This document shows positions 23,883 through 62,187 of a stretch of DNA of 64,000 bases, piece by piece. A program made the position numbers and the translations under genes. This stretch comes from a virus. How positions within the stretch are numbered: the first letter of the stretch is position 1; each line of letters starts with the position of its first letter. Below the pieces are notes generated by a model. It saw only the letters and a program-made list of their open reading frames with translations. It was not told the origin of the DNA and made no database searches. The stretch covers positions 5,816-69,815 of IMG/VR virus record IMGVR_UViG_3300042010_000012, one strand, 5' to 3'.

Positions 23883-23898
23883 TATGTGGAGAATAACA

Positions 23899-39609: not shown

Positions 39610-40192
39610 TTGCGTTGTCTTTCAGGAACTGCATGAAGATGTCTTCATGCACATCATAACCAAACAAGTTGATCTGTTTACGTTTAGGTCTGAAGTTCGA
39701 CACAACGGTCTTGACTTCGACATCAAAGATGATTTCATCGACGCTACTGAACTTATCATCAAACGCGTTTTGAGTTTGGATGGAATAGATAACACCATCA
39801 GTGTCACCGATGAGTCCATACAAAGGGCCGTTGAAGGTGTGAATGATTGAACCTAGATTTCGATCACTGAAGCCAAGGTTGACCAAGTGCTGAAACGCTT
39901 GTCGGATGACGTCTTTGTCATTACCAGTTTTGATCTTCAATGCTTTGAACTTGCCGAGACCCAGGAACTTGGCGATGTCCATTTGAAGGCCTTTAGGCTT
40001 TTCCTTAGTATGGACCAGGCTGCCATTTTGACTAAGGTAAATGTAGTGCCGGTCATTTATAGCATGACTGTACACGCCATAACCATCAACAATCGTGTGA
40101 CCTTCTGCGCGCAGTTTCGCACGCACTCGACTCCAGATCTCTGAGCCGTGAGCTTGCATGTCTTTAGTTGTGAAGTAGTCGTTTGTACGCAT
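39593..40192 (-). CDS. hypothetical protein
   Basis: 199-aa ORF. Confidence 0.45.
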   Translation of the reverse strand: MRTNDYFTTKDMQAHGSEIWSRVRAKLRAEGHTIVDGYGVYSHAINDRHYIYLSQNGSLVHTKEKPKGLQMDIAKFLGLGKFKALKIKTGNDKDVIRQAFQHLVNLGFSDRNLGSIIHTFNGPLYGLIGDTDGVIYSIQTQNAFDDKFSSVDEIIFDVEVKTVVSNFRPKRKQINLFGYDVHEDIFMQFLKDNAIKSAT

Positions 40193-40761
40193 TATGCAAC
40201 CTTCAAGTCAAGTAGGAAATCACTAAGTTCGAAAAGATCAAACGTTGTGTTGATGTTGAAGCAGCGAACGTTATGTTCTTTGGCGATTCTCCATGCAGTG
40301 GCGGTACCACCTTCAGGAACGCCTTTACGATCAACCGGCGCCCAGCATATAAGGAACTTCGATGGGTCGTCAAGTGAATGACCAAGCACCTGAAACACAT
40401 TACGTGTGTGTAGGGTTCTAGCACCTTTCGAACATGCATTCCAATCGGGGTGCACACTCTTAGCGATCTGAACCGCCTTTTCCCAAATCACCGCAGGGAC
40501 TTGTTCAGGGACTGTATAATTCAAACCCTTCTTTCGACCTTCAAAGCCATCCCACGGCAGGTAGATGTCGTAGAACTGTTTCGGACTACGGATCAGATAT
40601 TGCTTTGCACCGTCCTCAAACGCTGTGTCAGCCCCTTCAGCGCCACCCGAACGCAGTGTGTAGTGCGCGTGTGCGAGACGACTGCCAAGGGCTTTGAGGA
40701 CTTCACATTGGGTCTTTGGCGTCCCGCGTGAGCCAACGCCTGTGTAGTAGAGGTGTTTCAT
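40192..40761 (-). CDS. DprA/Smf-like Rossmann-fold (SLOG superfamily) protein
   Basis: YTGVGSRGTP...LAHAHYTLRSGGAEGADTAFEDGA...GGTATAWRIAKEHNV matches the DprA core (GSR.....SGGA.G.D..AH..AL..GGT). Confidence 0.45.
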   Translation of the reverse strand: MKHLYYTGVGSRGTPKTQCEVLKALGSRLAHAHYTLRSGGAEGADTAFEDGAKQYLIRSPKQFYDIYLPWDGFEGRKKGLNYTVPEQVPAVIWEKAVQIAKSVHPDWNACSKGARTLHTRNVFQVLGHSLDDPSKFLICWAPVDRKGVPEGGTATAWRIAKEHNVRCFNINTTFDLFELSDFLLDLKVA

Positions 40762-40766
40762 AATGA

Positions 40767-41225
40767 TTACCGAGTCCTTGGTAGTGAGCTAACGTCGATT
40801 TTGAAACCTTCGAGTTCGATGCTCTTGACCAGAGTCTGCATCTCAACCTTGAGGCTTTCTTGCAGTTCGCGGATCTCGATAATGCGATCACGCCATTCGC
40901 GCAGGTCACCTTTAGGCTTGATCATAGCTTCATCGAACATGTCACGGGTGATGATTGCAGTGTCATAGTCAATCGAGGCTTCAAGTTCAAGCGGATCAGA
41001 ACTTCCAGGTTTAGACGGGTGGTAAACACCTTGACATAAAGCGTCAGCGGTCGACGAGTTCGAACCGCGACCGTAAGTCCACTGATCGGAATCATCGTCG
41101 AACTTGGGAGTTTTGCGCCAGTAGTAAATGCCGCCGTCACCGTCTTGTGTGATAGCGACACAACCTTCGCGTGGATACTCGGTCAGGAAAGTCTGAACGA
41201 GGTTAAGCAGTTTCTTACGTGCCAT
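40767..41225 (-). CDS. hypothetical protein
   Basis: 152 aa with RBS AAGGAA. Confidence 0.45.
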   Translation of the reverse strand: MARKKLLNLVQTFLTEYPREGCVAITQDGDGGIYYWRKTPKFDDDSDQWTYGRGSNSSTADALCQGVYHPSKPGSSDPLELEASIDYDTAIITRDMFDEAMIKPKGDLREWRDRIIEIRELQESLKVEMQTLVKSIELEGFKIDVSSLPRTR

Positions 41226-41249
41226 GGTAATATTCCTTGAATCGAAGAA

Positions 41250-41269
41250 AAGGGGCCTTGCGACCCCTT
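41250..41269 (-). terminator. weak terminator or attenuator after the NAMPT-like gene
   Basis: The - strand reads AAGGGGTCGCAAGGCCCCTT followed by TTCTTCG. Confidence 0.35.
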
Positions 41270-41285: not shown

Positions 41286-42980
41286 TTAGTCAATCAGGCG
41301 TTGACGAATCTCGGACAGACTTGTTTCAGATACAACACCGTTGTGGAACAGAATCTCCATCGCACCCAGGTTGTCGATATCACTCATCGGTTGTTGGTCG
41401 TACAAGACGAACTCATCACCTTCTTTCTCGACTCGCAGAAGACCTTTAGCCGACTTCTTGAGCGCGTCACCAGTCTTCGGATCTTTGAACAGCTCAATAA
41501 ATTCACCGTCAATGACAGTAGCTGTGGCTTTAACAGCACTACCAAAAGTATCACGAGTTGAATAGTTGTAAGTGTAACTGCCAATGCCAAGTACCACATT
41601 GCCACTTGCGAAGCCCTTATCCATCAGACGTTGCAGAATTTCCCACTGACGTTCCAGGGTGATGCTGTCACCGTAGATCAGACCGATGTGAGTGTCGAGT
41701 TGTTTGAAGCCTTTGTCGGAGTAAGTACCACCGAAGGTTTCCCACAGCAGTTCGATAGAACCTTTGACTTCGTGATCTGGTATAACTTCACCAACTGCTA
41801 CGCGGCTTGGGTCAACACGATCAAATCGACGATACTGATCACCAATACGAACAACTTGAGCCTTACCGATAGAACTCAGCTTTGCGGTTTCGAAGTCATA
41901 CGCTTTGTAGAATGCATCAACACTATCGAACTCATCAGCCAGAACATGTAAACCGCAGATGATTTCGATTGGATTGCCGCTGTCAGGGCGAATGACCAAA
42001 CGACCATCACGCGCCATAATTGCCTCTTTGACGCCCGGAGTAGGCAAGAGCTGAGTCAGCAAACCCCAGTAATCGTAGGTGTCAGCAACATAGCTGGCAA
42101 AGCCTGTAGGCACGATGCGAGTGATGTAGTCGAGCAGGAAGCGAACTTCACCGAGCAACAGGTATTGTTCATCGGTCATGCCAGGCATTTCTTCGCGCAG
42201 TGCACGAACGTGGAACAGGATGTTGCTGGAACTGATGCTGTGTTCAGTAGCAGGTACACTACCACCAATCAGTTCGTTGTCGGAATCGGCGTGGTAGTAG
42301 TCTTCCACGTAGTCGATAGCCGATACCACATCAGTGCCAGTGAACGACAGCAAGTGAGCAGCACCCGAACGCGCAGCATCTTCAGGACCCGACATACCGC
42401 GAGAAGAGAAGTCGTGACCTTGCCACTGGATCGCTTCTTTCGGCGTACCAGTCAGTTCAGCGAAGTGTTCGAACACGCGGCGATATTCGTAGGCGATGGT
42501 CGCGTTGAGACTGGATTTCCAGTTCGAGTTCGATAGAGTCGGTTCGATGTAGTTGACCAACCAGGCGAAGTCAGGGTGAGTGTTGTTGATCATCATTGTT
42601 GGAACTTTCATGCTGACGCGACTGCCTTCTGGCAGAGCGCGTACAAGCAGCGGCAGATAGCCCAGATCATGCAGTTGAGCGAAGCCGTCAGCAGGGATAA
42701 CGCCAGGGCCCATCATGTTGTTACAACGACGTTGATAGCGCGCAACAGCTTGTTCTTTTGGTAGGTTGAAGAACTGTTCATTGAACGCTTCAACCAGGAA
42801 TTCGGACGCGAAACCTTGACCACCAAACACAACCATCTTCTTGTCGAACAGTGGGCCACCTTTGAACAGGCGGTCACTGCGAGGGGTGAAATTTGAAGAC
42901 AGGAAAGTAGTGAATATGCGCATCATTGCGCGGTGACCAAGTTTATACGCGTCGGTTGCTGACAGAGGTTGCAGTTTCAT
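41286..42980 (-). CDS. NAMPT-family phosphoribosyltransferase (NadV-like; possible nicotinamide ADPR transferase Namat)
   Basis: 564 aa. TDAYKLGH, HDFSSRG, SVPATEHS and IRPDSGNP match NAMPT TDSYKVTH, HDFGYRG, SVPAAEHS and IRPDSGNP. Confidence 0.75.
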   Translation of the reverse strand: MKLQPLSATDAYKLGHRAMMRIFTTFLSSNFTPRSDRLFKGGPLFDKKMVVFGGQGFASEFLVEAFNEQFFNLPKEQAVARYQRRCNNMMGPGVIPADGFAQLHDLGYLPLLVRALPEGSRVSMKVPTMMINNTHPDFAWLVNYIEPTLSNSNWKSSLNATIAYEYRRVFEHFAELTGTPKEAIQWQGHDFSSRGMSGPEDAARSGAAHLLSFTGTDVVSAIDYVEDYYHADSDNELIGGSVPATEHSISSSNILFHVRALREEMPGMTDEQYLLLGEVRFLLDYITRIVPTGFASYVADTYDYWGLLTQLLPTPGVKEAIMARDGRLVIRPDSGNPIEIICGLHVLADEFDSVDAFYKAYDFETAKLSSIGKAQVVRIGDQYRRFDRVDPSRVAVGEVIPDHEVKGSIELLWETFGGTYSDKGFKQLDTHIGLIYGDSITLERQWEILQRLMDKGFASGNVVLGIGSYTYNYSTRDTFGSAVKATATVIDGEFIELFKDPKTGDALKKSAKGLLRVEKEGDEFVLYDQQPMSDIDNLGAMEILFHNGVVSETSLSEIRQRLID

Positions 42981-43030
42981 TGTTTCAATTTCCTTTCATG
43001 TGAAATAATAACGAAGTTAGGAATTGCTGC

Positions 43031-43855
43031 TTACCAGGGGAAGTAAACCATGTTGGCAGGCATGTTGTTGATTGCAGCGCCTTTGAAGCTTGTCGTAGTG
43101 TACACACGATCAAATTCATTCGCAACTACATCAGCGCCTTTAGTGAACAAGCCGTGAGTTACAGCAAGTTCAACGCGATTTGCGGCAGTAGTCAGTTTGG
43201 CGAGTTCGATGAAAGTACGGCCACCGTCGCAGATGTCGTCAAGTACGAACAAGTTCAAACCAGTTACATCGGCAGACATTGTCAGGCTTGTAATGTGACC
43301 AGTAGCCATGTCGCGTTCTTTGTTGCAGACGATAACACCTTTTGCACCGACTGCTTTGGCGAACGCTGCCGACTTCTTGTATGCACCTGCATCAGGCGCG
43401 ACGATGTGGATATTCGACCAGTTGCTGTGCACACGACGGAAGATGTCGATCTGGTCGATAACGACGATGTTTTTGATCAGTGCGGACATTACATCGCTGT
43501 GTGGATCAAGTACGACGACTTGTTCGAACCCCAGGTTGTTGATAAGTTCCGCCATTACCGCTGCACTGTGAGCATCACCGCGATTGCAGACACGATCCTG
43601 GCGCGCATACGGCATGTAAGGGATGCGCGCTTTCAACTTGATGCCGACGTATTCACGACGCAACGCATCCACTGTAAACAGCAACTTCATGATGTCGTCA
43701 TTTGTTGCGAGGTACGCAATAACAGTGGCTTCGGTTACTTCAGGATGACCCCAACCAGAAGGCTTTTCACTGTTGAGGCCAATACCCACTTCACCAGCAG
43801 GGAATTGTTTGTTCTCAATGTCGTAGGTAACATTACCGATAATATACTTGATCAC
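43031..43855 (-). CDS. ribose-phosphate pyrophosphokinase family protein (Prs-like; possible ADPR-PP synthetase Adps)
   Basis: 274 aa. IPYMPYARQDR and VLDDICDGGRT match the Prs PRPP-binding motifs. The N-terminal ~50 aa are atypical for Prs. Confidence 0.7.
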   Translation of the reverse strand: MIKYIIGNVTYDIENKQFPAGEVGIGLNSEKPSGWGHPEVTEATVIAYLATNDDIMKLLFTVDALRREYVGIKLKARIPYMPYARQDRVCNRGDAHSAAVMAELINNLGFEQVVVLDPHSDVMSALIKNIVVIDQIDIFRRVHSNWSNIHIVAPDAGAYKKSAAFAKAVGAKGVIVCNKERDMATGHITSLTMSADVTGLNLFVLDDICDGGRTFIELAKLTTAANRVELAVTHGLFTKGADVVANEFDRVYTTTSFKGAAINNMPANMVYFPW

Positions 43856-43934
43856 GGGTTCTACTTCTCAGGGTTATGTTGATAGTGCAGGAAGTCTACA
43901 CTGCCTTAGTCTATACAGCAAGTTCTTTTTGAGT

Positions 43935-43967
43935 AGACAAAGAAAAGCCCTCAAACAAAGAGGGCTT
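43935..43967 (-). terminator. rho-independent terminator after the SPFH gene
   Basis: AAGCCCTC AAACAAA GAGGGCTT hairpin with the - strand T-run TTCTTTGTCT. Confidence 0.5.
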
Positions 43968-43986
43968 TTCGGGTGACGCTTAGGTG

Positions 43987-44835
43987 TTACTTGGCGAAGA
44001 CACGGTTGCTCAGACCGCTGCTACCCATTGCTTCGTATGGTACGAAGATCGCTGCCTTGTTCTCGGCCATCTTCTCCATCACTTCCAGCTGACGGTATTG
44101 CAGCAGAGTAGGCGTGATGCCCGCGGCGGTGATGTTGTTTTCGTCACGAACAGTCTCAGCACGTTTCATGCGGATGTCGTAGTCTTTGGCAGCAAGCAGC
44201 AGTTCGTTTGCCCGTTCAACCATCTTCACAGCCTGGTTGTTTGCTTCGGTTTCAATCGCCATCTCACGTTCGTTGCGCTTCTGGATCGCGTTATCGATTA
44301 CGTCAGGATAGTCGATGTTCGCCATCGTGATGTTCGACACTTCCAGAGGACTGTTCGCCATCGCTTTGCGCAATTGATCGGTCAGGTCGTTGCTGATCTT
44401 GTCGTAGTTGTTGGCAACTTCGGTCACCTTGTACTTACTCAAGACAGACCGCGATACAGTTTGGACCATGTCCTTACCGTACACACCGTAGACCATCGGC
44501 AGCGTCACCTGGAATTGCTGGTGCTTGATGTCGTTGAACATCGAGTTGATCACCTTCTCATTACCGTTGATGCGAGTACGGAAGCGCACTTGCAGGTTCA
44601 GGGTCAGGTCGTCGGCCATCTTGACTTGGATCGCCTCGGCCATGGTCTGAGTACTGGTGTCAAGGATCACCATGTCTTCAGTCCACCAGAGCCAGTACTT
44701 GCCAGTCTCTTTGACATCAGTGGAGTAGCCTGCGGCCGACAACACTTTACCTTTTGCTGCTGGCGGAACGGTCACTTTACCACAACCAACCATTGCCAGG
44801 GCGAGTACTGCACAAACAATCATTTTCTTAAACAT
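43987..44835 (-). CDS. SPFH/band-7 (stomatin/prohibitin-like) lipoprotein
   Basis: Start at the ATG at 44835 (RBS AAGGAA). Lipoprotein signal MFKKMIVCAVLALAMVGC. SPFH-like segment NAIQKRNEREMAIETEANNQA. The + ORF 43984..44853 is a shadow. Confidence 0.6.
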   Translation of the reverse strand: MFKKMIVCAVLALAMVGCGKVTVPPAAKGKVLSAAGYSTDVKETGKYWLWWTEDMVILDTSTQTMAEAIQVKMADDLTLNLQVRFRTRINGNEKVINSMFNDIKHQQFQVTLPMVYGVYGKDMVQTVSRSVLSKYKVTEVANNYDKISNDLTDQLRKAMANSPLEVSNITMANIDYPDVIDNAIQKRNEREMAIETEANNQAVKMVERANELLLAAKDYDIRMKRAETVRDENNITAAGITPTLLQYRQLEVMEKMAENKAAIFVPYEAMGSSGLSNRVFAK

Positions 44836-44836
44836 G

Positions 44837-45154
44837 TTACTTCGTTTCCTTGAGTTTGAGGGAATCTTCGAATTGCTGTTTGATGGAAGCCGCAGTATTG
44901 TGCGTGCTTTCAACTTTGTCAATAGTCAAAACAGGAGTTTCGACATCGAATTTGTTGCGACCAAGATCAGCTTGGCGAGTGCCTACGTCAAACGCGCTGA
45001 GACCCACTACAGCAGCGAGAACCAGGGTAGCTAGTGCAACATACTTCTTGTGCTGGCGAAAGCTGTGCAGGGTGAGTAACGCAGTCACAGTCAGCACTAC
45101 GATTGCCATGTACAGTTGCAGCGGGCTCCAACTCAGGTGAATTTCAACCATCAC
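44837..45154 (-). CDS. NfeD-like small membrane protein (putative SPFH partner)
   Basis: 105 aa. Two TM helices followed by a soluble beta-rich C-terminus. ATGA-type coupling to the SPFH gene, the typical operon arrangement. Confidence 0.4.
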   Translation of the reverse strand: MMVEIHLSWSPLQLYMAIVVLTVTALLTLHSFRQHKKYVALATLVLAAVVGLSAFDVGTRQADLGRNKFDVETPVLTIDKVESTHNTAASIKQQFEDSLKLKETK

Positions 45155-48624: not shown

Positions 48625-48867
48625 TCACACTACATCCAATTTATTTTTGTCTTCGAAGTATGCGTCAAGACGCTTGACGAACTTGGTAGCTTCACTGAAC
48701 GCTTGACCGTCGTCCATCTTCAGCATGTCAAGCAAACGCTCTTGAGCGGTACGCAGAAGGGCTTTCAGCTCGCGGTTTTCGCGCTGTGTGTGAGCAAGTA
48801 CCAAATTCGCGATGCGCGATGCTTTGTTAGGGTCTTCACCAGAGTAATAGAGAATACGTTCACTCAT
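48625..48867 (-). CDS. hypothetical protein
   Basis: 80-aa ORF. Confidence 0.45.
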   Translation of the reverse strand: MSERILYYSGEDPNKASRIANLVLAHTQRENRELKALLRTAQERLLDMLKMDDGQAFSEATKFVKRLDAYFEDKNKLDVV

Positions 48868-49082
48868 GATGTAATTACCTCGGCTTCAGTTTCGATCCAT
48901 ACGCGAGCACCACAAGCAAGAGGCTTATCGGGTGAATAGACTACGCGACTAGGGCCTTTAATCTCGACCTCATGCGCGTAACGATTTTCCTTGTACGTCT
49001 TCACAGTAAGAGTCGGTTTGTTCTCACCGTTCTTCGCGTTCGACTTGATAACATGTTGGTTCACATGTATGACTGTTTTCAT
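48864..49082 (-). CDS. hypothetical protein
   Basis: 72-aa ORF with ATGA coupling. Confidence 0.45.
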   Translation of the reverse strand: MKTVIHVNQHVIKSNAKNGENKPTLTVKTYKENRYAHEVEIKGPSRVVYSPDKPLACGARVWIETEAEVITS

Positions 49083-49083
49083 G

Positions 49084-49392
49084 TCAATACAAATCCTCGC
49101 TGAACAGTTCGGTCGAACCCTGATTACCAGACTTCAGACGGCGCTTGTTGAGTTGACCACCAGCCAGAGCGATCTTGTAAGCCTCACTGCGATCCATGAA
49201 GACACCGAACTGGTCGATAAAGCCTTCTTCATACTCACCAAGGCCATCCGATTCGATCAGACGGTCTTCGTTCATACGGTCAAGTTGTGAATGCATGACC
49301 ATATCAAAGTGACGTGCACCTGCAATGATGACCTTGCCATAACGAACAGCCGCACAGACGACGAAACGCCCTTCAATCAGTACAGTGGACAT
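49084..49392 (-). CDS. hypothetical protein
   Basis: 102-aa ORF. Confidence 0.45.
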   Translation of the reverse strand: MSTVLIEGRFVVCAAVRYGKVIIAGARHFDMVMHSQLDRMNEDRLIESDGLGEYEEGFIDQFGVFMDRSEAYKIALAGGQLNKRRLKSGNQGSTELFSEDLY

Positions 49393-49563
49393 TAGAGGCA
49401 GCCTGCATTAGGCTGCTGTTGGTGACGCTTGTGATGATCTTCCATCAAAGCCTCACGGATGGCGTTCTCAAGCATGAACCTGCGATCATCAGCGCAGTCG
49501 GCATTACGGAGTGGGTCAATGTAGCGCTGTGCAATAGCACGAACGCGGCTTTCATCTAACATG
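49393..49563 (-). CDS. possible small ORF (56 aa)
   Basis: ATG at 49563, 2 nt after the upstream stop. Fills the gap exactly. Confidence 0.35.
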
Positions 49564-49564
49564 A

Positions 49565-49819
49565 TTACAGTCCTAATGAGGTTTTGAGAAGTTGGATTGC
49601 CACGAGGTTATCTTGCTCAAGTGCTGAGCCTTTATACCCGTCGTATTCATCGTACATCGTGTGATGTTGGTGGTTCGCTTCGATACACATCAAAGCATTC
49701 GCAAACACCCGAAGGCTCAGAGCGCGGGCTTTGATTTGGTAGTCATACTCGATGTGCGAAACAGTTTTGCGATTTTCGAGGTCAACCAAAGGCTTTTTGT
49801 GTTCGGCGTAAAGTGACAT
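49565..49819 (-). CDS. hypothetical protein
   Basis: Start at the ATG at 49819 (RBS GAGGGG), downstream of a PeSL-like promoter. The track ORF extends to 49918 through the promoter. Confidence 0.45.
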   Translation of the reverse strand: MSLYAEHKKPLVDLENRKTVSHIEYDYQIKARALSLRVFANALMCIEANHQHHTMYDEYDGYKGSALEQDNLVAIQLLKTSLGL

Positions 49820-49849
49820 GATGATCCCCTCTTCACATTTATTCCGTGC

Positions 49850-49878
49850 ATAGTAAAGGGGCCGAAGCCCCTTGTCAA
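49850..49878 (-). promoter_or_regulatory. sigma70-like early promoter with hairpin spacer (PeSL-like): TTGACA-AGGGGCTTCGGCCCCTT-TACTAT
   Basis: On the - strand, TTGACA, a 17-nt GC-rich palindromic spacer (GGGGC TTCG GCCCC), then TACTAT. The ATG at 49819 lies about 25 nt downstream. Confidence 0.45.
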
Positions 49879-49892
49879 AGGATTTGTTGGAC

Positions 49893-50078
49893 TTAGAAGT
49901 CGTCAGCGAGGTCAGCAACAGCAGTCACAAGACCATCGAAGTCTTCATTAGGACCGTAGACGTTGGCGAGTACAAACACAGCATCTTCATCAACGCCGTT
50001 TTCTTCAGCGAGCGAACGCAGATAGTGGGCACGAGATTTGTAGCCATTATCAGCGTAGACGTTCTGTGCGATGTTCAT
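49893..50078 (-). CDS. hypothetical protein (61 aa)
   Basis: Strong RBS AGGAG 7 nt before the ATG at 50078. Downstream of the second PeSL-like promoter. Confidence 0.45.
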   Translation of the reverse strand: MNIAQNVYADNGYKSRAHYLRSLAEENGVDEDAVFVLANVYGPNEDFDGLVTAVADLADDF

Positions 50079-50118
50079 GATGTAACTCCTGCTTCACGTT
50101 GTTTGTTTTGATGTGTCC

Positions 50119-50146
50119 ATGGTAAAGGGCCCGAAGGCCCTTGTCA
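50119..50146 (-). promoter_or_regulatory. second PeSL-like promoter: TTGACA-AGGGCCTTCGGGCCCTT-TACCAT
   Basis: Near-identical copy of the element at 49850 on the - strand. Hairpin GGGCC TTCG GGCCC in the spacer. Confidence 0.45.
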
Positions 50147-50163
50147 AGCATTTTGTGTGAGGA

Positions 50164-51102
50164 TTATTCTTCGATGTAGCTGAAGCTTTCGCACACATGG
50201 TTCGGGATCAGTTGACGATGCTGAATCCAGCCTTTGAAGTTACCTGAATGGAAGACACCTTTGCGATCCATGTGAGTGATACCCTCCTGCCATTCGGTCA
50301 AATGCTCATATGCACTATCACCCAAGCGCGGTTTCTCGATTGGAGTACCCTGGTGCTCGAACGGGCTAGCGTGTACTTTATCGGCCCCTACAAGACGATC
50401 ATAGAGCCCTACAGCTTTCTCAAGGCTGTCATCACTCTTACGATACGACACTTGGGCACAACATGACGAACTGATCTTCAGGGCTTCAGCCAGGGTGTAC
50501 TCATGAACATCTGTACCGCTACCTTCAAGGAACTCGCTCCAGTAGCCGTCGAAGTAGAACGGAACGTGCCACTCACCAGGTAGCAATAGACGCGGCGAAC
50601 TTTCGTTGTATGCAGCAAGCATCACGTTAGCCAGGACTTTGATGGTCGGATCAGCCATCTCGCAATGACGCAACCAGAACCAGTTGTCATATGAAGTCGA
50701 AGTCACAACCACTTTGATGTTCTGGGCGAACTCAGTACCACGGTTGGCGACTTGCTTGTGATAACCCGCTTCAGCAAAACCTTCACTGAACTTGGCAGCG
50801 CTCAGTGCCATCAGCTTCCACCATTCTTGAGGTGTGTAGCCGTTGATCAGTTCGAAGTGTTCACCAGCGTCCTGCATACCAGTCTGGTTCTTACCGAAGT
50901 GAACAGGCATTGCAGGGTCGTTCATGACACGATCAAGCACAGCCTTTGTAGGGATAGCGCGTGAACTTGCGGCATTACGCGAGAACTCACGGTGAGTCAT
51001 CAGCTCGGCGTGAACGATGCGCGGATAGTCGAGGACGAAGGTCGTAATACGGACACCATCTTCATTAATGGAGTCAGCAATGATTTCAGCAGTAACGGTC
51101 AT
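50164..51102 (-). CDS. thyX: flavin-dependent thymidylate synthase ThyX
   Basis: ELMTHREFSRNAASSRAIP matches the ThyX motif RHR..S...S.R. 312 aa. Confidence 0.8.
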   Translation of the reverse strand: MTVTAEIIADSINEDGVRITTFVLDYPRIVHAELMTHREFSRNAASSRAIPTKAVLDRVMNDPAMPVHFGKNQTGMQDAGEHFELINGYTPQEWWKLMALSAAKFSEGFAEAGYHKQVANRGTEFAQNIKVVVTSTSYDNWFWLRHCEMADPTIKVLANVMLAAYNESSPRLLLPGEWHVPFYFDGYWSEFLEGSGTDVHEYTLAEALKISSSCCAQVSYRKSDDSLEKAVGLYDRLVGADKVHASPFEHQGTPIEKPRLGDSAYEHLTEWQEGITHMDRKGVFHSGNFKGWIQHRQLIPNHVCESFSYIEE

Positions 51103-51275
51103 ACAGGTTCCTTAGGATTAGTGTGGGTCAGACATGCGACGTCGAAATTGACAATTCGAATATCGTTTAGGTCATCCACGTATGAGCATGTTGCCTTGAC
51201 GCCTACAAGTTTCTCAACAGTCATTTCAGGACTACCACTGTTCAAGAAAACGACGTCACCTTGTTTGATTGTCAT
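51099..51275 (-). CDS. DUF2158 (YodC-like) small protein
   Basis: MTIKQGDVVFLNSGSPEMTV matches the GDvV.LKSGGP.MTV signature. ATGA overlap with thyX. Below the track cutoff. Confidence 0.45.
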   Translation of the reverse strand: MTIKQGDVVFLNSGSPEMTVEKLVGVKATCSYVDDLNDIRIVNFDVACLTHTNPKEPV

Positions 51276-51277
51276 GA

Positions 51278-51664
51278 TTAGTTACCGTTATGAGCGAATT
51301 GGTCGAGGATGTGTGCGTCTTCTTCCTCGAAGACATGCGCAGGGATTTCTGGCAGTTCTGTGGCTTCAAGTGGTGCAGAGTTTGAAACACTTTCCAGAAC
51401 TTCAGCATCATCACCGTAGTGTTGTTTGCGTGCGATCATACCTTCAATGCGCCAGATCTTGTCGAGGGCTTCCTCACGCGAGTACTTGCGACCCAGTTCA
51501 TCTTTGAACTCTTCAGGGTTGATCGGTGCACTTTCACCAGTGACGTAATAGCCACCCCTGGTGTAAATGATGCACATCATGAAACGATCACCACGAGTGA
51601 GGTACTCTTCAGTCAGAACTTGGTTCTCGATCCATTCGTGCGACAACTTTTTAGGATTTGCCAT
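51278..51664 (-). CDS. hypothetical protein
   Basis: 128-aa ORF. Confidence 0.45.
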   Translation of the reverse strand: MANPKKLSHEWIENQVLTEEYLTRGDRFMMCIIYTRGGYYVTGESAPINPEEFKDELGRKYSREEALDKIWRIEGMIARKQHYGDDAEVLESVSNSAPLEATELPEIPAHVFEEEDAHILDQFAHNGN

Positions 51665-51896
51665 TCAGACGCGCCTCAAGTTGAGTGTAACCACCGATGT
51701 ATTCAGACATACCTTCAGCGGTCAGGAAGATTTGTGGGACAGAACTGATCGATGTACCGACCATTTCTTCAAGTTGTTCTTTCTGGATATCGTCACCGAC
51801 TACCTTATAGTCGAATTCGATACCTTTCATCTTGCACAACACTTTTGCCTTTTCGCAAAAGGTGCAGCCAGGACGGCCATAGATCAATGCCTTCAT
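51651..51896 (-). CDS. nrdC: glutaredoxin (NrdC-like)
   Basis: MKALIYGRPGCTFCEKAK is a CxxC glutaredoxin active site. 81 aa. Confidence 0.75.
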   Translation of the reverse strand: MKALIYGRPGCTFCEKAKVLCKMKGIEFDYKVVGDDIQKEQLEEMVGTSISSVPQIFLTAEGMSEYIGGYTQLEARLNGKS

Positions 51897-51928
51897 ATGT
51901 AACTCCAGAGGTGTATAATGTGATTTGT

Positions 51929-52207
51929 TTAGCGAGGGTTTATGATGAATTTGTTAAACACGAGGGCAATCGTGTAGTAAGGTTCAGCACACGGGCGGTC
52001 TTCGCAGTCATAGTCCATCACGTAACCTAGATTCTCCATGTCGCGAATGAAGCTAACACGATCCCAAGGAACTCGCTTAGAATCGATCCTGACGCGCATG
52101 TCTGAACTTGCGCGCATGCGTGGGAGTAAGTGATCTTTCAACCACTCTTCGAGCCCCTCACATGCTTGAGTTTCTTGGATCAGGGTGTACATCTCGTGTG
52201 CGTTCAT
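51929..52207 (-). CDS. hypothetical protein
   Basis: 92-aa ORF. Confidence 0.4.
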   Translation of the reverse strand: MNAHEMYTLIQETQACEGLEEWLKDHLLPRMRASSDMRVRIDSKRVPWDRVSFIRDMENLGYVMDYDCEDRPCAEPYYTIALVFNKFIINPR

Positions 52208-52398
52208 TGAACCAGACTCACAGTAAATGGCATATGTGTGTACGATGCATATACCAGTGCTGCACCGATACCCATAGGGATTAGAGCTTCAAAACAGAAC
52301 CTGCCACTGAATGCATTACCTATGAACAGCAACACAAGGCCACCGATACAAAAGAACGCTCCAGCAAATGTAATGATCAACCATCCAATAACAGCCAT
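52204..52398 (-). CDS. small membrane protein
   Basis: 64 aa with two hydrophobic helices. Confidence 0.4.
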   Translation of the reverse strand: MAVIGWLIITFAGAFFCIGGLVLLFIGNAFSGRFCFEALIPMGIGAALVYASYTHMPFTVSLVQ

Positions 52399-52459
52399 AC
52401 TTCACTCCTAATAATATATAAGCCCAACGCAATAGTGCGTCAGGCTATTATACATGTGA

Positions 52460-53548
52460 TTAGAAGTCAGTATCAAGCTCAGTTTCATCAACGTTCATAT
52501 CAACTTGGCCGGTTTGATACTGAAGGATAGTGTCTTCCTGTGGTGCAGGTTGATCATCATCACCAGTTTCATTCAGGAACTTGCGCATCCAAGGGATAGG
52601 CTCTTTAACCGGAACGGTGAAGTTTGGCTCAACACCATTACGGCGCATGCACTTACCTACATGGTATTGCAAGTAAACGATCAGCTCTTGTTCAGTCAGA
52701 CCGACAATCGGGCCTTTGCTGAACAGATACTTGATCCACTCAAGTTCTTGACGATAGACAGCATACAGGATTGCTTCGGCATCAGCCTGACATTCAATCG
52801 CGATCTTCGCCATATCAGGGTCTTCTTTCGGACTCTGACGCAGGACAAACTGAGTGAAACCACAGTGGAACGCTTCGTCTTGACGGATCAGTGTAACGAT
52901 CTCACCAGAACCCTTCATCTTACCACGGTTGGCAAACGAGAAGGTGCAAGCGAAACTTACATGGAACCGAATCTGCTCAAGGGCGTTGACTGCAACCATG
53001 CACAGGTAGAACGCTTTCTTGGTGCGATAGTCGCCGTAGTCGTATTCTTTGATGCACCGCAGGAGTTCGTCATAGTACTTGCTGATGTCGTCAGAACACT
53101 CGGCGATCTCACGGATCTCCTTCATCGTGTCATAGATTTCAGAGGCGTTGGCGTAGACGTTCTCAATGATATGCGTGTAGCTGCTCGAATGGATGCCCTC
53201 GTAGAAGTTCCATGCGTTGATGAATGCCTCTGCCCATGAGTCAGACACAATCGGCAAGAAACACAGTGCAGGGGCACGGCCTTGAACGCTGTCGAGGATG
53301 ATTTGACGCTTCAGGTTCGATGAGAAAACATGCTTCTCAGCTTCGGTGAAGTCGTTGTAGTCAATCTTGTCTTGAGACATGTTGACTTCAGTTGGTCGCC
53401 AGTAGTTGGCCAACTGGTTTTCAGTCAGACGTTTAACCATCGGATACTTGACGACGTCATAGCGCTGAATGTCAACAGTGCCAGCCTCATCGAAAAACAT
53501 CTTAGGCTTGTAAGTACCGTTTACATCACGGAAGTATAGAACAGACAT
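52460..53548 (-). CDS. nrdB: ribonucleotide reductase beta subunit NrdB
   Basis: 362 aa class Ia R2 with conserved iron-ligand E/H motifs. Adjacent to nrdA. Confidence 0.85.
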   Translation of the reverse strand: MSVLYFRDVNGTYKPKMFFDEAGTVDIQRYDVVKYPMVKRLTENQLANYWRPTEVNMSQDKIDYNDFTEAEKHVFSSNLKRQIILDSVQGRAPALCFLPIVSDSWAEAFINAWNFYEGIHSSSYTHIIENVYANASEIYDTMKEIREIAECSDDISKYYDELLRCIKEYDYGDYRTKKAFYLCMVAVNALEQIRFHVSFACTFSFANRGKMKGSGEIVTLIRQDEAFHCGFTQFVLRQSPKEDPDMAKIAIECQADAEAILYAVYRQELEWIKYLFSKGPIVGLTEQELIVYLQYHVGKCMRRNGVEPNFTVPVKEPIPWMRKFLNETGDDDQPAPQEDTILQYQTGQVDMNVDETELDTDF

Positions 53549-53593
53549 TGAAACTCCTAGAAAGGCCGAGTGTTACCTCGGCCATGTTTGATG

Positions 53594-55882
53594 TTAGATT
53601 ACACAGGACGGGCAGGACGCTTCGTCTTCTTGCTCAACTACTTCTGGCACAGCACAATCAAGCGCAAGACTCTTCTCCTCTTCGGTCTTGATCATCTTAC
53701 GGTTGTTGTGGTAGTAGCCAGTTTTCCCGCCGAGTTTATAGATCAATGTCATGTCATTCAGAATCACGGTCGCCGGTACCTTGTTGTCAGGGTACTTAGT
53801 GTTGTCGTAGCGAGTGTTCAGCGAGATAGCCTGATCCATACGCTTCTGCATAATGCAGGAGATTTTGATGTAACCGTGAAGATTAACGTCCCACTCAAGT
53901 TGGTACTTGTGCTTCAGGCGATCATACTCAGGCACAACAAACTTAGTACCAGACTTAGCAACGATCAGGTTGCGAACAGGCTCTTGACCATTAGTCATGT
54001 TCTGCACACGCGAAGACGTTTCAGACGGCATGTTGCACATCAAGGTCGCGTTACGAATGCCCGATACCTTCATGCGCGCACGCAACGGCTCCCACGGCAT
54101 ACGCTCAACATGAGGAATAACTTCATCAATGCCTTTCTTGCGCACGTCTTGAGGGAAGATGCCCTGAGCGTATTTGGTGTTTTCAACTTTACCGCATGCA
54201 CCGTACAGTTCAGCAAGTTCAACCGACGCTTGAGTCAGATAGAACGCCATCGCTTCCATGTATTCATCGACAACTTCAAACGCACCTTCATCGAACTTCA
54301 GACCACGTTTAGCCAGGAAGTAAGCGAGGTTGTTTACGCCGATGCCCAGAGGACGATACCAGTCAGTGCTGTTTTTCGCAGCGGGCAGCAAGTATGGCTG
54401 ATAGTCAAGCAAGGCGTCAAGTGCGAACACAGCAAGACGGCAAGGAACTTCGAAGTCAGACGGCTTCTTGATTGCACCCCAGTTGATTGCACTCAGGTTG
54501 CACAGACTGATCAGCGCGTTCATGTCCTCAAGACTCATCAGTTCGATGGTCGGCAGTGTCACTTCAGTGCACAGGTTCGACATGCGAATAGGTGCGTTCT
54601 TAGCAACAAAACTACCCTGTTCGTTCGAGTTGTCGACGAAGTGGAAGTAAACACGCGAGGTCGAAGAACGCTCGGTAGCGATCATGTCACGCAGTTTGCT
54701 ACCTTCGATGATACGACGGGTTTTGGTTTCGTCTTTCTCATACAGCTCATACAGACGCGCAAACTCAACTTGGTCATCGCAGAACGCCTTCTGAAGCAGT
54801 GGAACTTCCTCAGGGGAGAACAGGGTGACGGCTTCGCGCTTGAGAATACGTTTCCACAGATAACCGTTCAGGTTGAATGCGTGGTCAGCGTGACGAATGC
54901 GTGTTTCTTCAGTGCCTTTGTTGTTCTTCAGTACCAGCAGCTTCTCAACATCCAAGTGCCAGATGTTGTGGTAGTAAGTCTCGCTACCCTTACGCATGCC
55001 GCCCTGACTAGAAGCCCCTACAATCGCTCGTGACGCTTGAGCAAAGCCAATCACGCCAGTAGTCGTCACGTCACCGTTACGAACAGGCTGCCCCTCAGCA
55101 CGCAGGTTAAACACGCCAAGACCGATGCCTGCCTTGTTAGTCGCATACTTCAGCACTGCTTGATAGGTCGCACCAATCGAGTCAATCGAATCGCCCATTT
55201 CAATCAGGGTGCAGCTTGCGCCTTGTGGGTTCGGTGTACGAATCGATGCAGCGATCGGACTCGGGATACTGATACCCGCTTCAGACAGCTGGTTGTAGTA
55301 GCCTTTGACCATCGTGATGCCGAAGCGATCAACGTACTTGCGCATCAGAACAGCGGCTACCAGGATGTAGGCCACTTGAGGCGTTTCGTGGTAGACCTTC
55401 TGCTTACGATTCTGCACCAAATACTTGTCAAGCCACTCACGCGCACCCGAGATACGGAAGTTAAAGTCGTTGTCATGCTTGACAAACGATTCAATCTTGG
55501 CCCACTGCTCAGGCGTGTACATGTTCAACAGGTCTTTGTGATACCAACCCGACTTGACGTTCTTTTCAACGATCCCGTACAGCGAAGGAACTTCGAACTG
55601 TCCATAGACTTCTTTGCGCAGTGCCAGCATGACCAGACGACCAGCGACCAGGTCATAGTTCGGATAATCTGGCGAGATGAGTTCGTGTGCTGAGTCGATC
55701 AGCGAGGTATGCAAGTCAGACGTTTTCATGCCGTCATGAAACTTCAGTCCAGCCTGTGCTTCGATCTCAGAAGGTGAAACGTTGCTTACGCCGTCACATG
55801 CCCATACTAATACCTTGTGAATCTTGTTGATGTCCAACAGTTCGCGTGAACCGTTTCTTTTAATCAGAAAAATATCTTTCAT
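53594..55882 (-). CDS. nrdA: ribonucleotide reductase alpha subunit NrdA
   Basis: 762 aa. N-terminal ATP cone (KRNGSRELLDINKI). Catalytic NLCTEV. The + ORF 53570..55033 is a shadow. Confidence 0.9.
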   Translation of the reverse strand: MKDIFLIKRNGSRELLDINKIHKVLVWACDGVSNVSPSEIEAQAGLKFHDGMKTSDLHTSLIDSAHELISPDYPNYDLVAGRLVMLALRKEVYGQFEVPSLYGIVEKNVKSGWYHKDLLNMYTPEQWAKIESFVKHDNDFNFRISGAREWLDKYLVQNRKQKVYHETPQVAYILVAAVLMRKYVDRFGITMVKGYYNQLSEAGISIPSPIAASIRTPNPQGASCTLIEMGDSIDSIGATYQAVLKYATNKAGIGLGVFNLRAEGQPVRNGDVTTTGVIGFAQASRAIVGASSQGGMRKGSETYYHNIWHLDVEKLLVLKNNKGTEETRIRHADHAFNLNGYLWKRILKREAVTLFSPEEVPLLQKAFCDDQVEFARLYELYEKDETKTRRIIEGSKLRDMIATERSSTSRVYFHFVDNSNEQGSFVAKNAPIRMSNLCTEVTLPTIELMSLEDMNALISLCNLSAINWGAIKKPSDFEVPCRLAVFALDALLDYQPYLLPAAKNSTDWYRPLGIGVNNLAYFLAKRGLKFDEGAFEVVDEYMEAMAFYLTQASVELAELYGACGKVENTKYAQGIFPQDVRKKGIDEVIPHVERMPWEPLRARMKVSGIRNATLMCNMPSETSSRVQNMTNGQEPVRNLIVAKSGTKFVVPEYDRLKHKYQLEWDVNLHGYIKISCIMQKRMDQAISLNTRYDNTKYPDNKVPATVILNDMTLIYKLGGKTGYYHNNRKMIKTEEEKSLALDCAVPEVVEQEDEASCPSCVI

Positions 55883-55897
55883 GGGTTGAACTACACC

Positions 55898-56452
55898 TTA
55901 GTTGTTTGGATTGTTAATAAAGTAATCGCACATTGCATAGGCATCCGTGATGTCGGCTAGTGGGCTTTTGTCGGACGCACAGTTTAGCAGCTTCTCTAAG
56001 TCAACGTCTAAGCCTTTGTTTAGAAAGGCATCGTACATCGCAGTCTTGTTTGAATTACCTTTGCCAGTGAACAGTTTCTTCACCGCAGTCGGCGCAGGAG
56101 TGATGAAAGCAATGCCTTCTTTCCACATTTTATGTTTCAACAGACCGATGTTCTCAGCGATATTGAACACTCGACCACTAGCGCCCATTGCATAACCTTC
56201 AAGACAAGCTTCTTTCACACCATGTCTCTTGAGGATAGTAATCGCCCATGACGCGATGTTGTCATAGCGTTCTTCATCACTGTGGTGCAACGTTGCTTTA
56301 AAGCCGTGAATATTACCGTAGGACTGGTCGTACTTCTTACTGTCAATGTAGAAGTAGAAGGTGCAGTTTTTGAATTCAAGTGGGGTCTTTGTATCGTGAA
56401 TGCAGATTGCTGGACATGACATCGACCAGTCGAGGCCGGCGATCATAGTCAT
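55898..56452 (-). CDS. RuvC-fold nuclease (putative Holliday-junction resolvase-like)
   Basis: IAGLDWSMSCPAICI (D), CLEGYAMG (E) and ADITDAYAMCDYF (D..DA.A) are the RuvC-like catalytic motifs. Confidence 0.45.
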   Translation of the reverse strand: MTMIAGLDWSMSCPAICIHDTKTPLEFKNCTFYFYIDSKKYDQSYGNIHGFKATLHHSDEERYDNIASWAITILKRHGVKEACLEGYAMGASGRVFNIAENIGLLKHKMWKEGIAFITPAPTAVKKLFTGKGNSNKTAMYDAFLNKGLDVDLEKLLNCASDKSPLADITDAYAMCDYFINNPNN

Positions 56453-56601
56453 TCTTCTTCACCATCGGTGTCGACGGCTGCATCAACAGGGGATGCACAG
56501 AATGGGCAGCAAGTGATATTTTGGGCATCCTCTTCTTGATAGACAAGGATATATTGAGTGTCGCAGGTTTTGCAAATAACTTCTGATTTGAGTAGAGACA
56601 T
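56449..56601 (-). CDS. possible zinc-ribbon small protein (50 aa)
   Basis: CKTC...CCPFC. RBS AGGAA. ATGA overlap with the downstream gene. Below the track cutoff. Confidence 0.35.
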   Translation of the reverse strand: MSLLKSEVICKTCDTQYILVYQEEDAQNITCCPFCASPVDAAVDTDGEEE

Positions 56602-56686
56602 ATCGGGTGATTCCTAAACGGTTATTGAAAGTGAATGTTGCCTATAACTTTCATTTATAACCGAAGAAACCACCCGATATTCAGGA

Positions 56687-57262
56687 CTAGCTTTCTTCCA
56701 CTTCGTCGCTGTCTTCACCACCAAGCACGCGTAACACACGCTCAGCCATGTCCTCAGACGTCACGTAGAAGTCTTCACCCTTCAAGATGCGTGTCACTTC
56801 ATCTTCAGTGAAGAAGGGCACGTAGATCGAATATGCGAGCTTCGCATACAGTTCAACAATTGCCTGGGCTTGCTTCAGATTATCGCTGAACTTCATCCCT
56901 GGACTGGTCAGACTGCCATCATGGTACAAGAAGTGTGCGAACGGATGAATCTCAATGTTCTCACACGCGAGCATGATGATAGTACCAGCACTTGCAACGC
57001 CAGCTTCAGCATGAGCAATCACGGTTGCCTGAGTACGAAGGATTGCATGCACAATCACAATCGCCGCTTCCATGTTACCACCACCTGTTGCCAAGTGAAG
57101 ATGAATCTCATCACCTGGCGCAGCATGGTCAAGGGTAAAGACAAGATCGCAATAGTCCTTAGTATCACCGATATCATCGTAGAAGTAGAAGTGATTGGGT
57201 GGTGCAACTTGCGGCCCTGTGTATTGCGGCGGAGTATAGCTTGAGGTCATTTGATGATACAT
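56687..57262 (-). CDS. ClpP-family serine protease-like protein
   Basis: HLHLATGGGNMEAAIVIV...IAHAEAGVASAGTIIMLAC resembles the ClpP/S14 core. Confidence 0.45.
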   Translation of the reverse strand: MYHQMTSSYTPPQYTGPQVAPPNHFYFYDDIGDTKDYCDLVFTLDHAAPGDEIHLHLATGGGNMEAAIVIVHAILRTQATVIAHAEAGVASAGTIIMLACENIEIHPFAHFLYHDGSLTSPGMKFSDNLKQAQAIVELYAKLAYSIYVPFFTEDEVTRILKGEDFYVTSEDMAERVLRVLGGEDSDEVEES

Positions 57263-57289
57263 GGTGAGTACCCGCTTTGTGTGATAAGA

Positions 57290-57583
57290 TCAACTACTAC
57301 TTAGTTCCTTTTTCATTCGTTTCCTAACAGTGGCAATGAAGTCATCCATCGAGTTTCTAGCGTCTAAGGTGAAAGAAACTCCGCAAGATCCACAATAGAA
57401 CAGATTGACATCACCCTGGCTCAACCATTGCAGGTGATTCTCGGGATGTTTGCAACTCCTCTTCATCTCATGTATTTGGCTTAGGATCGCTCGCTGTTTG
57501 CTTGCGAGCTTACCAATCTCAGTAGCATCAAAAGTGGCGTAATGCTTATCGTAGTCGAGACCTTCAGTAATCATGCCTTCCAC
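57290..57583 (-). CDS. zinc-finger small protein
   Basis: SCKHPENH...YCGSCG. 97 aa. Confidence 0.4.
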   Translation of the reverse strand: MEGMITEGLDYDKHYATFDATEIGKLASKQRAILSQIHEMKRSCKHPENHLQWLSQGDVNLFYCGSCGVSFTLDARNSMDDFIATVRKRMKKELSSS

Positions 57584-59166: not shown

Positions 59167-59214
59167 TTAACACCTTTCTCGCTGTAGTGTATTGTTGAAT
59201 TGTTTAGCGGCTTG

Positions 59215-60273: not shown

Positions 60274-60375
60274 ATCCTTACCATGTTTTGAAATTGATAA
60301 ATAGTATATAACACTAACAACACACTCTCCTACTGCTAACTGTAAAGAGAACAACGAGATAGAAGGAACAACCTG

Positions 60376-62186: not shown

Positions 62187-62187
62187 A

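Follow-up and report, generated by a model that had tools for sequence, protein, structure and literature searches.

A candidate NARP1 operon for NAD+ reconstitution in an uncultured phage related to Pseudomonas phage pf16

The NARP1 pathway and a similar gene pair in a viral record

Phage operons of the "Prs plus Nampt" type were recognized as misannotated by Osterman et al. (bioRxiv 10.1101/2024.02.11.579819; cited as Nature 2024). Their products form a two-enzyme pathway, NARP1, which rebuilds nicotinamide adenine dinucleotide (NAD+): Adps pyrophosphorylates ADP-ribose (ADPR) to ADPR-pyrophosphate (ADPR-PP), and Namat converts ADPR-PP and nicotinamide to NAD+. NARP1 overcomes SIR2-HerA, type I Thoeris, DSR1/2, and SEFIR, and is found in 4.3% of sequenced phages, with a Namat neighbour in 97% of Adps-clade genes. 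A separate Nampt clade, that of KVP40 NadV, works with Nmnat in another pathway called NARP2, and phages having both pathways were not found (bioRxiv 10.1101/2024.02.11.579819). Here, a NARP1-like gene pair is described in a stretch of 64,000 nucleotides (nt) from an IMG/VR virus record (IMGVR_UViG_3300042010_000012, positions 5,816 to 69,815), which is hereafter called the window and covers 64 kb of a genome of ~162 kb.

Structures of Namat from the Bacillus phage SPbetaL1 (9W5X and 9W5W) have been reported by Lan et al. (PMC12774641). Namat is separated from Nampt by an adenine "selectivity clamp," which consists of a selectivity-clamp loop (SCL) with R40 and a selectivity-clamp helix (SCH) with the motif GS-X-phi-X-phi-X-phi-TRD, where X is aromatic; the third position of the SCL is Arg, Lys, or Tyr in Namat. 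A catalytic histidine, whose residue number is not stated, is conserved between Namat and Nampt (PMC12774641). As for Adps, the K162A mutant of the SPbetaL1 enzyme is inactive (bioRxiv 10.1101/2024.02.11.579819). There is also a three-gene form, NARP1-AP, composed of Adps, a Macro-domain phosphatase Adpp, and Namat, as in Vibrio phage Gary; it counters aRES, which produces ADPR-1''-phosphate (bioRxiv 10.64898/2026.01.28.702374).

The window has two adjacent open reading frames (ORFs) on the minus strand, at 43855..43031 (274 amino acids, GTG start) and 42980..41286 (564 amino acids, ATG start), just where a first-pass annotation made from the sequence had placed a gene of the Prs family followed by one of the NAMPT family. 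These family assignments are borne out by Pfam, NCBIfam, and PHROGs matches far beyond chance, and the motifs quoted in the annotation (IPYMPYARQDR, VLDDICDGGRT, HDFSSRG, SVPATEHS, and IRPDSGNP) are all present. The GTG start is supported by the pf16 homolog, which begins at the same N-terminus (MLKYRI... vs MIKYII...), and the G+C content of the pair equals that of the remaining window.

43031..43855, minus strand: Adps-like gene (ADP-ribose pyrophosphate synthetase, Prs family), 274 amino acids; assigned from HMM, tree, and family scores
41286..42980, minus strand: Namat-like gene (nicotinamide ADP-ribose transferase, NAMPT family), 564 amino acids; assigned from PDB match, motifs, and tree

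Gene structure, operon layout, clade membership, and the published catalytic and specificity residues of this pair are those of NARP1, and the two genes very probably constitute a functional NARP1 operon. By analogy with the characterized systems, its substrates, products, and anti-defence effect would be as follows. A bacterial NADase defence of the SIR2, TIR, or SEFIR type would split NAD+ into ADPR and nicotinamide; Adps would use ATP to pyrophosphorylate the free ribose of ADPR, giving ADPR-PP; and Namat would then swap the pyrophosphate for nicotinamide to yield NAD+ directly, so that an adenylyltransferase for nicotinamide mononucleotide (NMN) would not be needed.

Resemblance of the two proteins to Namat and Adps

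The 564-amino-acid protein matches Pfam NAPRTase (2.1e-27), NCBIfam NF006629 (4.1e-135), and PHROGs phrog_448 (1.5e-178). The first-pass annotation had proposed structure and profile comparisons as checks of the NARP1 reading, and among proteins of solved structure the best match is SPbetaL1 Namat (9W5X/9W5W, E 4e-124), against about 1e-37 to 1e-39 for the PDB sequence matches to Xanthomonas (Xcc) and human NAMPT. Likewise, blastp gives 400 bits to SPbetaL1 Namat (40% identity) versus 132 bits to KVP40 NadV (31% identity). The features on which the comparison relies are listed below.

42843..42887, minus strand: SCL, amino acids 32-46, TPRSDRLFKGGPLFD; R37 is the equivalent of the adenine-stacking R40 of SPbetaL1 Namat
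42240..42242, minus strand: codon of H247 in the motif PATEHS; aligns with H245 of SPbetaL1 Namat, taken as the conserved catalytic His
42153..42221, minus strand: insertion 1 relative to SPbetaL1 Namat, amino acids 254-276; common to pf16, while PsIn, F1M1E, and garuso also insert here
41766..41930, minus strand: insertion 2 relative to SPbetaL1 Namat, amino acids 351-405; shorter in pf16, equal or longer in PsIn, F1M1E, and garuso
41550..41582, minus strand: SCH signature GSYTYNYSTRD, amino acids 467-477; Y469 and Y473 present

The protein was aligned with Adps-associated transferases from pf16, SPbetaL1, FADO, garuso (a stand-in for the Bas63-like type), and CC2, and with five Nmnat-associated, KVP40-type Nampts (KVP40 NadV, D483, KMI9, Taquito, and BcepSaruman); PsIn and F1M1E were added for the tree. 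Class labels were checked against the tables of Osterman et al., and KVP40 NadV was found via its D483 and phi-pp2 homologs and confirmed by the cloning primer in that paper. Both elements of the clamp are kept. The SCL reads TPR-S-D-R37-LFKGGPLF, an extended beta1-beta2 loop with Arg at the third position, whereas Nampts have a short ESRGGKF, and the position of the SCH is occupied in the five KVP40-type Nampts by GGGLLQQxxRD (GGALLQ..RD in BcepSaruman). The remaining class-specific columns are IYGDS versus IQGDG near D361 of SPbetaL1 Namat, PATEHS versus PAREHS, and DFSSRG versus DFGxRG near F189. At every one of these columns (DFS, PATEHS, IYGDS, SCL, and SCH) the 564-amino-acid protein agrees with Namat and departs from KVP40 NadV. 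All residues in contact with nicotinamide, NMN, and AMP are also kept, and so is the Nampt-like catalytic core: D10, Y12, F191, S192, R194, D217, H247, R331, D333, G437-D438, and G467-S468 are identical to D13, Y15, F189, S190, R192, D215, H245, R306, D308, G360-D361, and G390-S391 of SPbetaL1 Namat, respectively, while F392 and A362 of the latter are replaced by Tyr and Ser. In a neighbour-joining tree, Adps-associated and Nmnat-associated sequences are split with 100% bootstrap in a small sample of 13 sequences, and the 564-amino-acid protein lies on the Namat side.

Namat and Nampt superpose to ~1 Å, and a monomer model would therefore not tell the two classes apart.

Two insertions make the protein 73 amino acids longer than SPbetaL1 Namat. 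At both sites the inserts differ in length and sequence among PsIn, F1M1E, and the Bas63-like protein, and sequence comparison indicates that these sites are a variable feature of Gram-negative-phage Namats, insertion 2 being a variable surface site. They are compatible with function, since the Bas63 operon, whose Namat has larger insertions at the same sites, works in vivo. The variable insertions could carry a lineage-specific regulatory or interaction role.

Aeromonas phage CC2 had been assumed from 35% identity to be a NARP2 reference, and was rejected as such because the table of Osterman et al. labels it Adps-associated. The CC2 protein (L002:307-1818) departs from both classes, having NHCFAARG for HDFSxRG, NAFEHA for PATEHS, GSWGFLKNSSRD at the SCH, and an insertion before RPDS; judged from these residues, it may be a divergent or altered-specificity Namat.

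The 274-amino-acid protein matches Pfam Pribosyltran_N (9.7e-11) as well as Pribosyltran, NCBIfam TIGR01251 (3.7e-39), and PHROGs phrog_619 (8e-85). For the profile comparison, a hidden Markov model (HMM) of Adps was built from 15 Namat-associated proteins (labelled from Table S1 of Osterman et al. and from fetched loci) with the window and pf16 proteins held out, and a Prs HMM from seven sequences (E. coli and six actinobacterial), which also served as the negative set. The protein scores 282.9 bits on the Adps model versus 87.5 bits on the Prs model, and on the former the scores of genuine Prs proteins are no more than 83-138 bits. In a neighbour-joining tree with distance bootstrap of 17 Adps-type and seven Prs sequences, the split between the two groups has 100% bootstrap. 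The window protein and that of pf16 are found inside a Pseudomonas-phage subclade next to Bas63, and are bracketed by the experimentally supported members SPbetaL1 (in vitro), Bas63, and FADO (both in vivo). Other experimentally supported members, from mycobacteriophage DyoEdafos, Vibrio phage Gary, and a Paenibacillus homolog, are outside the present tree.

43319..43321, minus strand: codon of K179, the equivalent by alignment column of the catalytic K162 of SPbetaL1 Adps
43211..43240, minus strand: ribose-phosphate-binding loop DDICDGGRTF, amino acids 206-215; Adps-subclade type, where Prs has DDMIDTGGT

K179 lies within NKERD, and the protein has FPAGE, YARQDR, DPHS, APDAGA, and DD (206-207), that is, the Prs-type ATP/Mg motifs. 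All 17 Adps-type sequences are separated from all seven Prs by four sets of columns, namely [DE]PHS versus DLH[AT], APDxGA versus SPDxG[GR], KxR...TG versus KxR...N, and a terminal TF versus T[ILV] in the ribose-phosphate loop, and the window protein has the Adps state at all four. The loop DDICDGGRTF is common to Bas63, pf16, and most Gram-negative-phage Adps, and was considered as a universal Adps signature; this was rejected, as the loop reads DDL[ST]S[FY]GGTF in the Adps of SPbetaL1, FADO, and Staphylococcus phages (DDLSSFGGTF in the first two). Only [DE]PHS, APDxGA, KxR..TG, and the terminal TF are common to all 17 sequences. Together, the held-out profile, the tree, and these columns place the 274-amino-acid protein in the Adps clade, apart from cellular Prs.

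Public family models agree with this placement. The protein passes only the broad TIGR01251 (134 bits), and stays at 54-104 bits on Prs-specific NCBIfam models whose cut-offs are 296-536. As controls on TIGR01251, the validated SPbetaL1 Adps scores 106 bits, a Bas63-like Adps 139 bits, and E. coli Prs 423 bits; validated Adps likewise miss every Prs-specific cut-off, and the second score of the E. coli Prs control is 533 bits. The atypical N-terminal ~50 amino acids, in which the first-pass annotation saw a sign of diverged function, are real, the Pfam N-domain match beginning at residue 50, but they are a general feature of the Adps clade and not peculiar to this protein. The protein also lacks the first ~17 residues of Prs.

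Operon boundaries and competing explanations

A discrete transcription unit is delimited by the following elements.

43942..43970, minus strand: intrinsic terminator of the preceding SPFH/Band-7 gene, a hairpin whose 11-bp stem has 6 G-C pairs and whose loop has 7 nt, followed by a T-rich tail; bounds the unit on its upstream side
43856..43941, minus strand: leader 5' of the Adps-like gene, 86 nt; presumed promoter region
42981..43030, minus strand: spacer between the Adps-like and Namat-like genes, 50 nt; ribosome-binding site AAAGGA at 42996-42991
41245..41269, minus strand: intrinsic terminator right after the Namat stop, AAGGGGUC-GCAA-GGCCCCUU then UUCUU; downstream boundary

Neither a terminator scan nor reading of the sequence found a terminator in the 50-nt spacer, and terminators on both sides with none in between indicate that the pair is a discrete bicistronic unit. 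The downstream hairpin has an 8-bp G+C-rich stem in both minimum-free-energy and centroid structures, a GCAA loop, and a U-rich tail. It was missed by the consensus terminator scan because part of the T-run sits inside the stem, and was revealed by direct reading and folding. In pf16, terminators are annotated at both equivalent positions. A Namat gene within 10 genes is the rule for 97% of the Adps clade; here it is directly adjacent, on the same strand. The adjacency of Adps and Namat is also seen in pf16, garuso, SPbetaL1, FADO, PsIn (with a small ORF in between), and F1M1E.

The leader presumably has a promoter role. Within it are a weak TTGCTG-17-TAGACT arrangement and two copies of TAGACT, although a sigma-70 scan gave nothing above threshold and no promoter was identified. 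The hexamer TAGACT occurs twice, 9 nt apart, at 43893-43915 (minus strand) within (T)GTATAGACT...(G)TGTAGACT; the TTGCTG that precedes it resembles a -35 or MotA-box element, and the duplicated region may be a phage promoter element.

The first-pass annotation had also remarked that no NMN adenylyltransferase (NMNAT) gene is nearby, and this holds for the window: a Pfam scan of its 85 ORFs of at least 50 amino acids (E<=1e-3) found no PF01467-type NMNAT, with no direct search for NatV made and three marginal families left unviewed. The same scan found no NUDIX domain and no Macro domain, although HHpred, used in the NARP1-AP paper, is more sensitive for the latter. The lack of all three in the window points to plain NARP1 and not to NARP2 or NARP1-AP. 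An Nmnat with a KVP40-type Nampt, as in NARP2, is not seen within the window, and the transferase does not have the Nampt-type states. A Macro-domain Adpp is expected within two genes of the operon in NARP1-AP; the neighbours here are the SPFH/Band-7 gene, a 152-amino-acid ORF, and a DprA-like gene.

How far could the pair be explained by canonical salvage? A true phosphoribosyl pyrophosphate (PRPP) synthetase would then feed a true NadV, and the step from NMN to NAD+ would be left to a host enzyme (NadR/NadD type) or to an Nmnat that the phage encodes beyond the window. By family the two proteins are indeed Prs and NAMPT, public records annotate them accordingly, and ~100 kb of the genome lies beyond the window to which the NMNAT search was confined. 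The 564-amino-acid protein also passes the NCBIfam "equivalog" NF006629, but so do validated Namat and KVP40 NadV equally; the name of this model hence does not discriminate, and its match was rejected as evidence for a true phosphoribosyltransferase. Moreover, the 274-amino-acid protein lies inside the Adps clade, fails the Prs-specific cut-offs, and has DPHS and DGGRT instead of DLH[AT] and the DTGGT loop, while the 564-amino-acid protein carries the adenine clamp absent from Nampts. Osterman et al. obtained no PRPP-synthetase product from SPbetaL1 Adps, saw the Bas63 operon act without host PncC/NadR, and found no phage that combines NARP1 with NARP2 (bioRxiv 10.1101/2024.02.11.579819). In view of these discriminating features, canonical salvage, which the first-pass annotation had kept as its alternative, is very improbable.

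A shade less probable still is that NARP1 chemistry serves mainly general NAD+ homeostasis, for example by recycling ADPR from the turnover of phage or host ADP-ribosylation: the window does encode NADAR and RyR-domain proteins that handle ADPR, and the genes that surround the pair serve nucleotide metabolism or are auxiliary (RNA ligase, NrdAB, ThyX, and PhoH), but NARP1 consumes exactly the two products of defence NADases, and in the characterized systems ADPR-PP is seen only with an active NADase defence and deletion phenotypes are defence-specific.

Several points weigh against a NARP1 operon. Compared pairwise, the 274-amino-acid protein is only 35% identical to SPbetaL1 Adps over 193 amino acids (81 bits) and scores 79 bits to E. 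coli Prs; as these scores are alike, the Adps call rests on clade membership and on the Bas63-type relatives (134 bits). A PDB search with this protein returned no Adps structure among the matches, the best being Prs proteins at ~70 bits. The ribose-phosphate loop varies between Adps subclades, the literature consulted defines no Adps residues for the preference of ADPR over ribose-5-phosphate, and the negative Prs set, E. coli and six actinobacterial sequences, is small. The NMNAT search covered 64 of ~162 kb. Namat enzymes retain PRPP-to-NMN activity in vitro, so some NMN production by the 564-amino-acid protein is possible. Finally, the window pair and the pf16 pair are both known from sequence alone. 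Nevertheless, the NARP1 reading proposed in the first-pass annotation agrees with each of the sequence-level tests applied, namely the clamp motifs, the PDB match, the trees, the held-out HMM, the window scan for NMNAT, and the listing of the pf16 pair.

Related phages and other ADP-ribose-related genes

Among isolated phages, the sole relative is Pseudomonas phage pf16, which belongs to the genus Chakrabartyvirus and is peripheral among T4-like phages, and the operon belongs to an uncultured pf16-like, T4-related phage. A metagenome contig of 162 kb from JGI encodes an identical 564-amino-acid protein in the same gene order. Other genes in the window are T4-like, namely those for terminase, gp15, gp8, neck protein, clamp, clamp loader, RegA, NrdAB, topoisomerase II, PhoH, a Pif1/Dda-type helicase, DNA and RNA ligases, and ThyX. 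The NARP1 pair of pf16 (gp164/gp163) has the same order and strand with 64% (Adps) and 66% (Namat) protein identity, and it is listed in Tables S1/S2 of Osterman et al. as an "Adps-associated" transferase and a Prs-family gene with a Namat neighbour (KU873925_00169/_00168). Synteny extends to both flanks (RNA ligase ... SPFH ... terminator, Adps, Namat, terminator, small ORF, DprA-like), there is no difference in the SCH (GSYTYNYSTRD) or the ribose-phosphate loop (DDICDGGRTF), and Namat insertion 1 is common to both. On the other hand, megablast detects no DNA similarity at the locus, the structural region has a DNA similarity of ~76% over 20% of its extent, insertion 2 is ~28 amino acids longer in the window, and the small ORF after Namat has no detectable homology.

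More distant systems share less. SPbetaL1 (Adps WIT26982.1 and Namat WIT26983.1) is the biochemical and structural reference, and there, too, Adps is upstream and has the catalytic Lys that is kept in the window; it differs in its loop (DDLSSFGGTF versus DDICDGGRTF). For the Gram-negative-phage subclade, the in vivo reference is E. coli phage Bas63 (JohannRWettstein), for which the closely related garuso stands in here. Bas63-like proteins share the DDICDGGRTF loop and the sites of the large Namat insertions with those of the window, at 37-39% identity, and have Lys in the SCL (TPRSDKWF) where the window has Arg at the third position. NARP1-AP has the same two core enzymes, whereas the window shows no Macro-domain protein by Pfam, in or beside the operon or elsewhere. 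KVP40 NadV/NatV (NARP2) shares with the window pair the NAMPT superfamily, the catalytic core, and the outcome, i.e., NAD+ restored during infection, but the window Namat is without the GGGLLQ/ESRGGKF states and is partnered by a Prs-family enzyme in place of Nmnat. Cellular Prs and NAMPT have the same folds and the same phosphoribosyl- or pyrophosphoryl-transfer chemistry, and the ARQDR, KxR, and DD motifs are kept in the window; as PDB matches, they score 72 bits (E. coli Prs) and ~130 bits (NAMPTs), and the clade-specific columns differ from Prs.

There is a different arrangement in Pseudomonas phage PsIn (vB_Paer_PsIn, a Pakpunavirus; L014:363-3874 / L016). Its locus has a small ORF between Adps and Namat and, unlike the window, a macro-domain gene two genes downstream, with a DprA-like gene further on, and looks like a NARP1-AP architecture.

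Directly upstream of the operon, an SPFH/Band-7 ORF (43987-44922, minus strand) matches PF01145 (2e-18) and phrog_200 "lipoprotein," and shares 75% identity with gp165 of pf16; its start is overlapped by a small ORF (44837-45154, minus strand) that probably encodes a membrane protein. Elsewhere in the window, within 48703-63984, lies an NfeD1b_N-domain/Clp-protease-like ORF. Right after the Namat terminator, the 152-amino-acid ORF (40767-41225, minus strand) has no Pfam or PHROG match, and the same slot in pf16 holds a 130-amino-acid ORF, gp162, without detectable similarity to it. The position beside NARP1 thus seems to be a variable one, and the ORF may have a divergent Macro/Adpp-like fold of the kind that takes the sensitivity of HHpred to detect.

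Two genes downstream of Namat, at ~0.5 kb, is a DprA/SLOG-like ORF (40192-40761, minus strand; phrog_768 E 6.5e-66, Pfam DNA_processg_A only 18.5 bits). Homologs are located within ~3 kb in pf16 (L001:9055-9642) and PsIn (L016:339-920), and in ~17 other Pseudomonas and Pectobacterium phage genomes they are 2-8 kb away from Adps, on the side of Namat. This gene was considered as a member of the operon and rejected, as a terminator puts it in a separate transcription unit and homologs of the family (phrog_768) occur in ~1,500 phage records of varied context. A role in handling cyclic ADP-ribose (cADPR) or ADPR is conceivable, since the SLOG domain of Thoeris ThsA is a sensor of the cADPR signal. 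As a speculation, cADPR-type signals or ADPR derivatives might be ligands or substrates of the DprA/SLOG-like protein, which would then supply NARP1 in the manner of RyDEP and Adpp.

Further candidates lie outside the neighbourhood. Just after the RegA gene, an ORF of 162 amino acids (21612-22100, plus strand) has an RyR domain (PF02026, E 1.1e-10). According to a 2026 preprint, the phage RyR-domain family RyDEP hydrolyses or sequesters the 2'/3'cADPR of Thoeris, and the product ADPR feeds NARP1; the homolog H7 is a tight cADPR-binding sponge, and none of the homologs tested is catalytic. The window protein is 52-54% identical to the RyDEP homologs H6-H8 and 37% to the catalytic RyDEP; it keeps the equivalents of H75/W78/H100/D117 and has Ala at the position of RyDEP Q54, like H6-H8. 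Probably, it is a cADPR sponge. A NADAR ORF of 146 amino acids (23884-24324, plus strand) matches PF08719 (E 3.7e-23) and phrog_1017. In T4-like phages, NADARs (AdfN) take ADP-ribose off DNA and act against DarTG1 (PMC11825919), and the window NADAR appears to resemble these anti-DarTG1 factors at the family level. In addition, an AAA_33 P-loop kinase-like ORF of 161 amino acids (17712-18197, plus strand; E 5e-15) has weak matches to polynucleotide-kinase PHROGs, and there is a second AAA_33 match somewhere within 114-22392.

Taken together, the RyR-domain, NADAR, and DprA/SLOG-like ORFs suggest an ADP-ribose-centred counter-defence repertoire, as a lead and not as a result; that the phage lineage runs such a wider set with an uncharacterized accessory is rather unlikely.

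The operon is an ordinary addition to the described NARP1 family, the pair of its nearest relative pf16 being already catalogued. The novelty was overstated, for NARP1 is published, occurs in a known fraction of sequenced phages, and is routinely annotated in phage genome papers, e.g., for Pakpunavirus Adele. With NARP1 described in 2024 and the Namat structure in 2026, the finding has little discovery value. Its practical value is in annotation: public records, NCBIfam, and PHROGs still say "ribose-phosphate pyrophosphokinase" and "nicotinate/nicotinamide phosphoribosyltransferase," and the motif and clade tests used here quickly separate NARP1 from NARP2 or true salvage. If the pair does function as NARP1, this uncultured pf16-like phage would resist SIR2, TIR, and SEFIR NADase defences. 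As the window has no Macro-domain Adpp, the phage would by inference stay sensitive to aRES-type defence. It would also pair NARP1 with a probable cADPR sponge, the RyR-domain protein, and with an AdfN-like NADAR.

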